NCBI GenBank assembly: GCA_964360965.1 | Contig: CAYHYM010000016.1 | Coordinates: forward strand, 1-11,805 | DNA length: 11,805 bases | From: an uncultured Gammaproteobacteria bacterium | Lineage (GTDB): Bacteria > Patescibacteriota > Microgenomatia > Daviesbacterales > UBA10151 | Reading direction: 5' to 3' | Shown here: piece by piece, positions 9,312 through 11,750 of the stretch | Numbering within the stretch: the first letter of the stretch is position 1 | Layout: every line of letters begins with the position of its first letter | Notes under the pieces: generated by a model | The model's input: only the letters and a program-made list of their open reading frames with translations | The model's database searches: none | Told to the model about the DNA's origin: nothing | Position numbers and translations under genes: made by a program

Positions 9312-9432
9312 GTCCCGGCAGTGAGGTATTTTCACATATCCTTGCGAATATATTATCGTCCCCGCTGAGGCGTTTCACGACCCTGTTCGGAATGGAAAAG
9401 GGGTGGGACCACCTCGCTAAAACCACCGAGAG
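9312..9432 (-). rRNA. rrf: 5S ribosomal RNA
   Basis: The reverse complement contains GGTGGTCCCACCCCTTTTCCATTCCGAACAGGGTCGTGAAACGCCTCAGCG, which matches the conserved 5S loop B / helix III / CCGAAC / GUGAAAC blocks. Helix I closes as UCUCGGUGG (9431->9423) with CUGCCGGGA (9321->9313). Ends are good to about 3 nt. Confidence 0.9.
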
Positions 9433-9436
9433 CTAT

Positions 9437-9465
9437 AGTATACTAAAAGGAATTTCAAATCTCAA
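9437..9465 (-). promoter_or_regulatory. Putative dedicated promoter for 5S rRNA
   Basis: The minus strand reads TTGAGA (9465->9460), a 17-nt spacer, then TATACT (9442->9437). The predicted TSS 6-7 nt later coincides with the inferred mature 5S 5' end (9431-9432). Confidence 0.45.
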
Positions 9466-9579
9466 GCACCAAGTGTCATCTATTAACAAACTATATCAAA
9501 GTGAATCTGCAGTACCAGCAGTTCAACCAAGGTAAAACCCTTCGACTCTCTTCCTTCGACTTTGCTCAGGACAAGTCGT

Positions 9580-9631
9580 TCGCTCAGGGCAAGTCCTTTT
9601 TGGTGGGCAGACATAATTCAAATATACCATA
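9580..9631. repeat. Left copy of a 52-bp imperfect direct repeat bracketing the TA cassette; preceded by a partial extra copy at 9562-9578
   Basis: In an ungapped alignment with 10265-10316, 14 of the first 17 nt match (TCGCTCAGG...) and 18 of the last 22 nt match (...GACATA..TATACCATA). The centre is divergent, but GGGCAGA is present in both. On the minus strand it contains TGGTATATT, an extended -10-like element. Confidence 0.7.
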
Positions 9632-9633
9632 CT

Positions 9634-9891
9634 CTAACCATATAAATTACTATGCGAATCTATGGCCACAAAAATAATTTCATCTTGAACTTGTTTGTAA
9701 ATTACCCTCAAATCTCCTGTAACATTAATACTTCTAAAACCACGATACTTTCCCTGAAGAGAATGATTATTTAAAGTTTCGTGGAATTGATCTTGACCAA
9801 ACAGCTTTAATCTTTGCATCAATCTTTCTTTCTGTCTGATAGTTAACCTTTTAGAATCTTTAATAAAATCCTTATGATAATTAATTACCAT
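9634..9891 (-). CDS. Type II toxin, RelE/YafQ-family mRNA interferase
   Basis: 85-aa ORF (..KRLTIRQKERLMQRLKLF..HSLQGKYRGFRSINVTGDLRVIYKQVQDEIIFVAIDSHSNLY). The size, motif layout and 7-nt overlap (ATGGTAA) with the upstream antitoxin gene are typical of this family. Confidence 0.85.
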   Translation of the reverse strand: MVINYHKDFIKDSKRLTIRQKERLMQRLKLFGQDQFHETLNNHSLQGKYRGFRSINVTGDLRVIYKQVQDEIIFVAIDSHSNLYG

Positions 9892-10163
9892 TGCTTTTCG
9901 AGGTAATCAATGGCTTCATCCATATTCTTAAAGCTAGGCGAAAGATTTCTATCATGCTTAATATCCTCTTCCACTCTACCCAGTAATTTTTCCAGTTCAG
10001 GAGTCATTTGGGGGATATCGGAAAAAACAATCTCCCTGGTTCTGATAAAATTTCTTAAAGAAGCATTTATCACATCAGATAAGGTTAACCCTAAATCTTT
10101 AGCAGCCTTTTGAGCATTTTCCTTAACTTCTTTATCAGCTTTAATGTGGATTACTGTTGTCAT
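9885..10163 (-). CDS. Type II antitoxin, RelB/DinJ family (ribbon-helix-helix)
   Basis: 92-aa ORF. The N-terminal VIHIKADKEVKENAQKAAKDLGLTLSDVINASLRNFI matches the RelB/DinJ RHH pattern. It overlaps the toxin gene. Confidence 0.8.
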   Translation of the reverse strand: MTTVIHIKADKEVKENAQKAAKDLGLTLSDVINASLRNFIRTREIVFSDIPQMTPELEKLLGRVEEDIKHDRNLSPSFKNMDEAIDYLEKQW

Positions 10164-10171
10164 ATAACCAA

Positions 10172-10200
10172 AGTATATACGATGGTTACAAACTTGTCAA
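10172..10200 (-). promoter_or_regulatory. Near-consensus promoter of the TA operon; predicts a leaderless mRNA
   Basis: The minus strand reads TTGACA (10200->10195), a 17-nt spacer, then TATACT (10177->10172). Only 8 nt separate the -10 from the ATG at 10163, and there is no SD. Confidence 0.55.
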
Positions 10201-10217
10201 TAACCTACAAAAGTCTG

Positions 10218-10244
10218 ATTAGTATGATATTCTCATTAGTATGA
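10218..10244. promoter_or_regulatory. Direct repeat ATTAGTATGA x2 (10218-10227 and 10235-10244; period 17) just upstream of the TA promoter; possible operator
   Basis: The repeats were read directly. The operator role is an inference from the known autoregulation of type II TA operons by RHH antitoxins. Confidence 0.3.
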
Positions 10245-10264
10245 ATTATACTCAAAGCTCACCA

Positions 10265-10316
10265 TCGCTCAGGACAGGACCACGGGCAGATTTGGACATA
10301 TTTTTAGTATACCATA
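10265..10316. repeat. Right copy of the 52-bp imperfect direct repeat bracketing the TA cassette
   Basis: See 9580-9631. On the minus strand it contains TGGTATACT (extended -10-like). It lies about 115 nt downstream of the inferred 23S 3' end. Confidence 0.7.
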
Positions 10317-10428
10317 TATTTGTACCCTGAAATGTGAATACGTCCCGCACTAGTCGCTTTCGCTCCAGTACGGGATTAGAAGGCCATAACCACCAACAGT
10401 ACAAATGATGTACCGAATGGTGGGTCAC

Positions 10429-10845
10429 AAAAAATCTCAACCATAACCATTAGTACTGGTAGGCTAAAACTGTTACCAGCCTTACACCGCCAGCCTATCA
10501 ATCCTTCGATTACTCTCAGGATTCCCTTACGGGAGGTCGTAGTCTACGACCGGTCTTTATAGATACCTCATCTTGGGGTCTGCTTCGTGCTTAGATGCTT
10601 TCAGCGCTTATCAGTTAGCAACGTAGCTACCCAGCGTTGCAGGTTTACCCACAACTGGCACACTAGAGGTTGCCTCATCTCGGTCCTCTCGTACTAGAGA
10701 CAACTCCCCTCAAGTATCAAAACGCCCATGTTGGATAGAGACCGAACTGGCTTACGCCGTTCTGAACCCAGCTCGCGTACCGTTTTAACGGGCGAACAGC
10801 CCGACCCTTCCCACCTACTTCAGCAGGAGGATACGATGAGCCGAC
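10429..10845 (-). rRNA. rrl: 23S ribosomal RNA, 3' exon (domain V 3' part plus domain VI)
   Basis: The reverse complement contains GTCGGCTCATC...GGTACGCGAGCTGGGTTCAGAAC. It also has the sarcin-ricin loop CTAGTACGAGAGGACCGAG, then GATAAGCGCTGAAAGCATCTAAGCACGAAGC and ...GATAGGCTGG...CAGTACTAATGG. The 3' end is placed by analogy with E. coli 23S from memory and is good to about 10 nt. Confidence 0.9.
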
Positions 10846-11750
10846 CATGGTTCTCCCTCTATTACTAGAGGCATAGACTATACCATCATCCCTGCACCAT
10901 CTGGTGCGGGGCGCTCAGCGTGTGATATGAATACTTCATATCTCATCATTCTCAATCTAGAATGAATCAGTCGTTACGGGGTCACAAGAATTTTGTAAGC
11001 TAAGTTAGGAATTATAAATTTAGAAATCAAAGGTATCAATCTAAACGTTTCAGTTTTGCTGAAATACATTCTAAAACCTTTATCTCTATCCTTATAAAAA
11101 TTACTATCTAGAGCAAATTTTTTCAAAAATACTCTTTGCAGCAACTTTATTTCTCCTAATTTAAAAGAATAGGTACTTATATCGATTTTATTTCGACTTA
11201 ATGAACCATCGTCCATAATCCAAATTGCCAAAGCAAGTGGATCTAAAAGATCTACTATATTCTTCGGAACAACTTTTATTCCATGTTTGTAAAACAATTT
11301 ATGAAATAAAGTTAACTTTGGATGACGAATGGTTCTAAACCACCAAGATTTAGCATAAGGAATTCGATTTTCATCGTACCTCATACTTAATTTGGGTGGA
11401 GTTGTAACCCACTCTTTAAACACTTCATACTTCCAGAAAACATAATCCTTTTGTTTTAATCCCTGTTCTATTTTAAAGTTGGCATTAAGGGCATTTTTAC
11501 CTACCCTCATTGTGCCATCTCCTAAAAGAGAACCTACCAAAACAGAAATTTGAGTTTGATTTAAACTCAAACCTTGTTTATATCTCTGAAGTTGGCGTGT
11601 TTGCATTCTTGGACTTCCCTCGGTATTGCCCCTTAACTTTAGATTACCCGAAAGTAATCCGAATTGTCAAGTAGGGTTTCACCGATATGAGCTGAATTTT
11701 TCCATAGAGAATTGCTTCTCTAGGCGACATACCTATTTCACTATAGGTTA
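10846..11750 (-). mobile_element. Group-I-like intron (~905 nt) in 23S rRNA carrying a LAGLIDADG ORF
   Basis: rRNA similarity breaks after ...GGCACCTCGAT (exon ends in U at 11751) and resumes at GTCGGCTCATC (10845). The intron ends in G (10846), consistent with an omega-G. The 3' part contains GGTATAGTC, which resembles the conserved group I core S element. Boundaries are good to within a few nt. Confidence 0.7.
10974..11606 (-). CDS. LAGLIDADG-family homing endonuclease (two-motif, single-chain type), intron-encoded
   Basis: 210-aa ORF with two LAGLIDADG-like motifs (LVGSLLGDGTM and LAIWIMDDGSL) about 100 aa apart. It lies wholly inside the 23S intron. A GAGGGAAG SD-like element lies about 9 nt upstream. 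Confidence 0.85.
   Translation of the reverse strand: MQTRQLQRYKQGLSLNQTQISVLVGSLLGDGTMRVGKNALNANFKIEQGLKQKDYVFWKYEVFKEWVTTPPKLSMRYDENRIPYAKSWWFRTIRHPKLTLFHKLFYKHGIKVVPKNIVDLLDPLALAIWIMDDGSLSRNKIDISTYSFKLGEIKLLQRVFLKKFALDSNFYKDRDKGFRMYFSKTETFRLIPLISKFIIPNLAYKILVTP

Follow-up and report, generated by a model that had tools for sequence, protein, structure and literature searches.

Between the 23S rRNA gene and the 5S rRNA gene of an uncultured Candidatus Daviesbacteria bacterium (Candidate Phyla Radiation (CPR)/Patescibacteria) lies a toxin-antitoxin (TA) operon bracketed by two 52-nt segments in the same orientation that resemble direct repeats. The window, by which we mean the whole stretch of 11,805 nt analysed here, is an entire contig (CAYHYM010000016.1, or C16) of a 22-contig, 628-kb genome (~0.63 Mb) from Hainich groundwater. 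Are the bracketing segments the footprint of the operon's arrival? When aligned with the pilin genes of relatives, they prove to be the starts of two different type IV pilin-like genes. We therefore favor, at a probability of roughly 80%, an interpretation in which the 23S-5S interval is a permissive, pilin-bearing locus, the TA operon is a mobile cassette within it, and the 52-nt segments are the starts of paralogous genes.

Read in the rRNA sense, the interval contains, after the 23S gene, a conserved 24-nt box, pilin stub A, an arm of a dispersed repeat and an inverted 52-nt vapBC-like stub, followed by the intact RelB/DinJ and RelE/YafQ cassette, pilin stub B, the 5S promoter and the 5S gene. 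The 1.25 kb around this arrangement is 100% identical in three independent assemblies (two from ENA and one from Logan), an agreement that excludes an assembly chimera or misassembly; the source of the identical contigs is Hainich H51 groundwater. The initial annotation of the window, made from the sequence alone, had placed the two rRNA genes about 1 kb apart, and Rfam matches bear out both the calls and the gap of ~1000 nt, with the 23S gene ending at ~10430 and the 5S gene starting at 9430.

The bracketing segments are the starts of two pilin-like genes

The stubs to which the two segments belong are the following.

10264..10316, minus strand: pilin-like gene stub A (the upstream 52-nt segment), from alignment A2 to relatives' pilin genes
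9483..9631, minus strand: pilin-like gene stub B (the downstream 52-nt segment and its continuation), from the open reading frame (ORF) at 9483-9614, the N_methyl match and the pilin alignment

In alignment A2, both stubs match relatives' pilin genes in the -10 element, the spacing, the ATG and the leader. Stub A has an extended -10, TGGTATACT, at 10306-10314, an ATG at 10297-10299 and leader codons MSKSARG running to 10279. On the rRNA strand it reads TGGTATACT-aaaaat-ATG TCC AAA TCT GCC CGT GGT, after which the dispersed-repeat arm CCTGTCCTGAGCGA stands in place of the expected FTL... sequence. The stub ends at this Gly codon, limiting any comparison to promoter and leader, and over that length it is 75% identical to the spacer pilin of another genus (G016), including an identical 13-nt run, ATCTGCCCGTGGT, in the leader, and also 75% identical to one of the genome's own pilin starts (C1:20196). 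It follows the conserved box directly, like pilin A of a further genus (G102).

Stub B has its extended -10, TGGTATATT, at 9621-9629, an ATG at 9614 and the leader MSAHQKG. Its rRNA-strand sequence is TGGTATATT-tgaatt-ATG TCT GCC CAC CAA AAA GGA, then CTTGCCCTGAGCGA, CTTGTCCTGAGCAA and two GTCGAAGG units, and continues after the repeat units with TCG AAG GGT TTT ACC TTG GTT GAA CTG CTG GTA CTG. Two dispersed-repeat arms (9561-9596) interrupt the leader, followed by SKGFTLVELLVL; 10 mature-pilin codons are present, and the 43-aa ORF encodes MSAHQKGLALSERLVLSKVEGRESKGFTLVELLVL and reaches a stop eight codons on, where the frame ends at 9483. Within it lies KGFTLVELLV, with the prepilin motif G/FTL(I/V)E and the hydrophobic helix; GFTLVELL is the motif at which type IV prepilins are cleaved and methylated. 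The Pfam N_methyl model scores 20.3 bits over residues 24-34 against a cut-off of 21.2, a shortfall that we ascribe to the truncation of the stub. Stub B is 86% identical to the pilin start found after the 5S gene of G102, and 81% identical over 43 aligned positions to the pilin that follows the TA genes in a metagenomic locus (L053). Its leader resembles that of the genome's own pilin at C1:22068. Contig C1 carries six full pilin-like genes, one of them with the same ...GLALSE.SESKGFTLVELLVV leader.

Each stub is thus nearer to the pilin starts of other genera (86% and 75%) than to its partner (58% pairwise), and for this reason we regard the segments as old paralogues and not as an insertion duplication. 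The landmarks that they have in common can be read accordingly: TATACCATA corresponds to the extended -10, GACATA to the ATG with a Ser codon, GGGCAGA to Ser-Ala leader codons, and TCGCTCAGG to an arm of a dispersed palindromic repeat. The suggestion that the segment is promoter-bearing therefore holds in part, TGGTATAYT being the extended -10 of pilin-like genes; its other part, that the segment is duplicated native spacer, is not supported.

The segments themselves are as first reported. A repeat search returns two pairs of blocks, 9579-9596 with 10264-10281 and 9610-9631 with 10295-10316, at a common spacing of 685 nt, together with an extra tandem copy of the repeat at 9561-9578, and the ungapped identity between the two 52-nt segments is 32/52. 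Taken alone, this similarity is not significant against shuffled controls. A second pair within the spacer likewise scores 32/52, dinucleotide shuffles average 28.9 with a maximum of 32, and local alignment of the two flanks yields only a 22-nt block that 21 or 129 of 1000 shuffles equal, depending on the scoring. Chance alone could produce such a score, since shuffles reach both the identity and the block; the segments are nonetheless truly homologous, as the alignment of both with pilin-gene starts from other genomes shows.

The repeat whose arms lie at the edges of the segments is widespread.

Window 9552-9596 and 10265-10281; also G000 C1:22098, C2:7863, C2:38647, C9:16488, C10:22042 and others: dispersed repeat arms

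It is palindromic and takes the form CCTTCGAC..GCTCAGGRCARG / CYTGYCCTGAGC..GTCGAAGG, or alternatively CCTTCGAC-N3-GCTCAGGRCAAG and its complement. The motif GCTCAGGRCARG marks 15 arms on 7 contigs of the 628-kb genome, and 25-mers of the repeat occur at 96-100% identity in many other genera and in other families. In the genome's own pilin at C1:22068 the repeat lies in frame within the leader, and the complete element at this site forms a hairpin (-18.7 kcal/mol, z = -2.9).

The 23S-5S interval is variable and often carries pilin genes

The frame in which the stubs and the cassette sit consists of four features.

10430..10941, minus strand: 3' part of the 23S rRNA gene (Rfam RF02541 match at 10443-10941, up to model position 2912/2925)
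10319..10342, minus strand: conserved 24-nt spacer box CGTATTCACATTTCAGGGTACAAA, native spacer just downstream of 23S
9437..9465, minus strand: 5S promoter TTGAGA-17-TATACT, ending 6 nt before the 5S 5' end
9313..9430, minus strand: 5S rRNA gene (Rfam RF00001, 67.6 bits, full model)

We place the 23S 3' end at ~10430 because the Rfam match stops at model position 2912/2925 and because of the alignment to relatives whose match reaches 2925.

All 40 relatives with which the interval was compared belong to other genera. Eight of these genera have short spacers of 74-148 nt that lack the TA operon and consist of the 23S tail, the invariant box (CGTATTCACATTT...) and the 5S promoter, and seven others have long spacers of 563-1974 nt. 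In the long intervals, N_methyl pilin-like ORFs lie on the rRNA strand in G002, G011, G015, G016, G020 and G021 (three genes), and on the opposite strand in G013. The order in G102 is 23S, box, pilin A, 5S promoter, 5S, pilin B; in G088 a pilin motif follows closely on 23S; and G104 probably also has a pilin in the interval, no 23S being confirmed at its locus. Pilin-like genes in the interval thus extend to nine or ten genera, often as one to three genes on the rRNA strand, and in this family pilin genes flank the 5S gene on either side.

These relatives also bear on the idea of an insertion put forward in the initial annotation, which had proposed to look among them for an empty site with a single copy of the 52-nt segment. 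The eight short-spacer genera have no such segment, and the pilin-bearing spacers have a pilin start after the box. That a TA operon was added to the interval is supported by the eight genera whose 74-148-nt spacers lack it; that the 52-nt segments are the footprint of this event is not.

The 5S gene appears, from its upstream sequence, to be made as a primary transcript. The -10, TATAnT, is unchanged in 8/8 other genera, ending 5-8 nt short of the mature 5' terminus, and a -35-like TTGnnn stands at the same place in 7/8, G014 having an extended -10 only. From this conservation we predict that 5S is an independent transcription unit across the family, and describing the TA genes as sitting inside an rRNA operon is therefore too strong. 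An interval that is variable in length (74-1974 nt), bears pilin genes and ends at a 5S gene with its own promoter is better viewed as a flexible intergenic locus than as a tight transcribed spacer, and the separate 5S promoter makes it a tolerated landing pad for mobile modules.

Cargo other than pilin genes occurs as well, namely a gene for a four-helix protein of the 23S_rRNA_IVP family on the opposite strand in G006 (L033, G006:C8, 210-566) and a 373-aa ORF ahead of the pilin gene in G016 (L036, G016:C56, 824-1945). In alignment A1, all 8 other genera share an unchanged CGTATTCACATTT in their spacers. G102 and G020 have the box as well, there immediately ahead of a pilin gene. Its role may lie in pre-23S processing or pairing.

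Several further observations concern the same region. The 24-nt box is nearly invariant across genera regardless of what follows it. Pilin-like genes lie directly downstream of 5S at L013 (G014:C3, 1149-1168), L023 (G016:C56, 1395-1414) and L066 (G102:C16, 852-1199). In the window itself, an ORF for a LAGLIDADG_2 homing endonuclease (10974-11606) lies within a gap of the 23S match, at about model positions 2094-2468, and the gap together with this ORF indicates that the 23S gene is probably interrupted by an intron.

The TA operon is a mobile cassette under purifying selection

The operon, its promoter and the remnant next to it are located as follows.

10164..10201, minus strand: TA promoter TTGACA-17-TATACT at 10200-10172
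9885..10163, minus strand: RelB/DinJ-type antitoxin gene, 92 aa (Pfam RelB and NCBIfam RelB_DinJ profiles)
9634..9891, minus strand: RelE/YafQ-type mRNA interferase toxin gene, 85 aa (Pfam YafQ_toxin, NCBIfam RelE_StbE)
10207..10258, plus strand: vapBC-like TA cassette stub, 52 nt, in the opposite orientation (85% identity to G024:C23)

Profile matches uphold the original description of a complete RelB/DinJ-RelE/YafQ-type operon on the rRNA strand. The antitoxin exceeds the cut-off of Pfam RelB (23.9 bits; 22.4) but stays slightly below that of NCBIfam RelB_DinJ (43.6 bits; 45.65). The toxin exceeds the curated cut-offs of Pfam YafQ_toxin (49.6 bits; 30) and NCBIfam RelE_StbE (44.1 bits; 27.9) and falls below that of the narrower NCBIfam YafQ family, TIGR00053 (43.3 bits; 87.25); judged by these profiles it is a YafQ-like member of the RelE/StbE superfamily and not a YafQ equivalog. 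The two genes, antitoxin first, share 7 nt (ATGGTAA, containing the antitoxin stop codon). We collected 197 toxin homologues, nearly all of 84-86 aa among the 120 listed, and residues H43, R53, R62, H80 and Y84 are invariant in 50 homologues. The relatives of the toxin in the PDB are HP0894 and YafQ, and its motifs HSLQG (H43) and SHSNLY (H80) align with HALKG and SHSELF of HP0894. Relative to the copy at L053, the antitoxin has a dN/dS (the ratio of nonsynonymous to synonymous divergence) of 0.04 and the toxin one of 0.15, at dS >1.1; these ratios and the residues kept in 50 homologues indicate that both genes are under purifying selection.

The near-consensus promoter reported for the operon is also present and agrees with the consensus at 11/12 positions. 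A palindrome, TAACCA...TGGTTA (10165-10188), overlaps its -10 and is likely, given this position, the antitoxin operator; promoter and palindrome are kept in the 17 cassettes that were aligned in the correct orientation. As the ATG follows 8 nt after the -10, the mRNA is predicted to be leaderless.

Where does the cassette begin and end? In the 96 family genomes, the similarity of the copies (~12 full, 7 partial) to the window is confined to the stretch from 9633-9640 through 10200-10202. The limits are thus the toxin stop codon (9634) and the -35 (10201), defining a promoter-to-stop unit of 568 bp that is packed without spare bases. Its flanks differ every time and include a riboflavin kinase gene, NUDIX and MVD genes, an Na/H exchanger gene, tRNAs and pilin clusters. 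We conclude that it is a mobile module of an ordinary kind, subject to purifying selection. A scan of genome contigs with the toxin sequence alone returned 2 loci. At L039 (G024:C11, 580-610), L101 (1175-1186) and L040 (2255-2270), the TA -35 touches or runs into the stop codon of the gene upstream; in one genome (G024, at the riboflavin kinase gene) the TGA lies inside TTGACA, and in another a TAG directly precedes TTGACA.

The position between 23S and 5S is confined to this genome among the 96 of the family. No rRNA lies within 1.5 kb of 10/10 other family copies or of 79/80 metagenomic copies. The exception is L101, a metagenomic contig with the order TA, a 162-aa ORF, 5S, S1 gene and with no 23S in the ~1.2 kb upstream. 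In G024, the contig starting 41 nt past the toxin stop opens with TTGACT-16-TAAACT, which resembles the 5S promoter, and another contig ends within 5S, so that the order there is probably TA followed by 5S. The cassette therefore adjoins rRNA genes only in this genome, in one metagenomic contig and, probably, in G024. A common origin of the three 5S-adjacent cassettes was considered and finds no support in a tree of 17 cassettes (rows L056, L061 and L064 of alignment A6 left out), whose resolution within the clade is poor: the three do not group, three changes are needed, and no bootstrap tree makes them monophyletic.

The closest relative of the window's cassette, at 79% identity, is that of L053, which lies in an ordinary pilin cluster with the order truncated pilin 5' piece, TA, then the same pilin start. 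In G068, a third and partly decayed copy lies between two pilin genes. Pilin linkage as a general rule for the cassette was likewise considered and rejected, as it is seen in 3 of ~100 contexts.

The cassette was not the only one to reach the interval. The 63 nt between its -35 limit (10201) and the upstream 52-nt segment hold the vapBC-like stub, which keeps a degenerate -35, a -10 of TATTCT (10228-10233), an ATG (10241) and the first 6 codons (MNYTQS). The stub shares 85% identity with the promoter and beginning of a 98-aa ORF lying ahead of a PIN toxin gene (G024:C23) and matches 10 other family genomes at 82-93%; on this evidence it is a dead second TA cassette, and the interval has received at least two TA cassettes, one of which decayed.

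Assembly of the locus and alternative explanations

How might these pieces have come together? We suggest that the cassette has changed place many times within the family, with illegitimate or homology-assisted recombination as the most plausible route, and that here it landed in a pilin array or arrived together with one pilin start. The pilin genes would have decayed afterwards, leaving repeat arms at the deletion junctions. Within the cassette, the antitoxin, if it behaves like other members of its family, would occupy the palindrome that covers the -10 and would keep the toxin inactive; free toxin would cut mRNA on the ribosome.

Some points weigh against this interpretation. The order of events, whether the pilin array came first and the TA genes later or TA genes and pilin B came as one unit, is a reconstruction. 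Searches for proteins identical to the toxin and to the S1 protein encoded next to it returned contigs of the same population only, all with the same arrangement, and thus no empty or pilin-only allele of this species. The pilin-linked cassettes (the window, a metagenomic organism represented by L053, L054 and L074, and G068) are the few already counted. TA activity, operator binding and mRNA cleavage are predicted from family membership and homology. The repeat arm lies at the same offset from the ATG in both 52-nt segments and is absent from foreign pilin starts, which could reflect local duplication or gene conversion; countering duplication, the genome's own pilin at C1:22068 has a repeat arm at the same place.

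The explanation offered in the initial annotation was that insertion of the cassette duplicated a 52-bp target in the native spacer and left imperfect direct repeats. Two co-linear blocks at an identical 685-nt spacing do bracket the TA genes, and both copies share a repeat arm equally distant from the ATG. A target duplication, however, should not leave copies that are only 58-62% identical and each closer to the sequences of other genera, and the short spacers of relatives hold no such segment. The cassette limits in about 20 genomes exclude the repeats, and upstream the repeat stands 63 nt from the cassette end, separated from it by the foreign vapBC-like stub. Since the pairwise similarity is also matched by shuffles, we consider a target duplication largely refuted and very improbable.

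A functional explanation would have the cassette co-transcribed with 23S and 5S, such that the toxin tracks ribosome synthesis and a stem formed by 10288-10316 and 9434-9462 loops the cassette out. No terminator-like site was found between 23S and 5S of the window, and the proposed stem corresponds to a 29-nt inverted repeat between the start of stub A and the 5S promoter, with 23/29 matches and 0/200 shuffles as good, that brackets the whole 825-nt insert. Homologous cassettes also lie just upstream of 5S at L101 and probably in G024, which is above chance for a single-copy locus in a 1-Mb genome. Yet the 23S-5S placement occurs in 1/96 family genomes, the three 5S-adjacent cassettes are not monophyletic, and cassette and 5S each have a promoter of their own, that of the cassette being conserved along with its predicted operator. 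Part of the complementarity arises because the arms are promoter sequences whose -10 elements share a palindromic GTATAC core; the remainder could be the trace of an inversion (the G013 pilin is inverted) or an RNA stem, but the equivalent G102 sequences, compared by eye only, have no obvious pairing. We regard co-transcription as a poor fit to these data and quite unlikely.

The third explanation makes pilin sequence part of the process. If the cassette traveled with pilin 5' flanks and integrated by homologous recombination (Campbell-type or double-crossover), the stubs would be the arms. In the window as in L053, a truncated pilin 5' piece precedes the TA genes and a pilin start common to both comes directly after the toxin stop (81% over 43 positions), and the decayed G068 copy likewise lies between pilin genes. 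The upstream stubs of the window and L053 are, however, different paralogues, and G068 has no upstream stub. Three pilin-linked contexts among ~100 are near chance for a permissive multi-gene array, and the majority of copies have unrelated housekeeping genes on either side and no pilin sequence in the vicinity. Pilin-borne transfer is thus unlikely as the route, though it retains some probability, and a permissive pilin-bearing interval that received a mobile cassette is the explanation that we retain.

Significance and comparison with known systems

The cassette itself is ordinary; it is the context that is worth keeping. A practical warning follows from it, as the direct repeats that flank a cassette can be what is left of paralogous genes and not insertion scars. 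We found no paper on a TA module in a 23S-5S spacer, or on pilin genes in CPR rRNA operons.

As a TA module, the cassette resembles the type II modules RelBE and DinJ-YafQ (E. coli YafQ, PDB 4ML2 and 4Q2U; H. pylori HP0894, PDB 1Z8M and 4LS4): the antitoxin gene comes first and overlaps the next, the 85-aa toxin has the RelE/YafQ signature with H43 and H80 motifs aligned with those of solved toxins, and a palindromic, predicted operator covers the -10. It differs from these modules in its predicted leaderless mRNA and in its site between rRNA genes. The kinship of its toxin to that of DinJ-YafQ is at the RelE/StbE level only, below the NCBIfam YafQ cut-off, and the window's module is known from sequence.

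The setting has parallels of its own. Unlinked or independently transcribed rRNA genes occur in small-genome bacteria, and the 5S gene described here is similar in having its own promoter, as are G024 and L101 in having no 23S before 5S in the sequence seen. Unlike in those bacteria, most members of this family keep 23S and 5S no more than 150 nt apart.

Pilins are the main surface and attachment structures of bacteria of this kind, and their recurrence beside the 5S gene invites a broader interpretation. We raise it tentatively, giving it somewhat less than an even chance: the 23S-5S interval, and more broadly the sequence immediately upstream of the 5S gene with its own promoter, could be a miniature hypervariable locus of Daviesbacteria, anchored by recombination in the rRNA genes, and a CPR counterpart of hypervariable region 2 (HVR2) of SAR11. 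If so, surface pilin genes would undergo exchange, duplication, inversion and loss there, selfish TA cassettes would build up and degenerate, and the window would be a snapshot of the process with two pilin stubs and two TA cassettes, of which one is dead and one live.

In SAR11, HVR2 is a 48-kb island of mainly cell-surface genes between the sole 23S and 5S genes, and it was proposed that homologous recombination is anchored in the conserved rRNA genes (Wilhelm et al. 2007, PMC2217521). The Daviesbacteria interval likewise lies between 23S and 5S and is variable in length (74-1974 nt) and in content, with mostly pilin-like genes. It differs in scale (0.1-2 kb versus 48 kb), in cargo (pilins and selfish TA cassettes versus lipopolysaccharide genes) and in phylum. 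The parallel suggests that conserved rRNA genes can anchor the exchange of surface genes in very different lineages.

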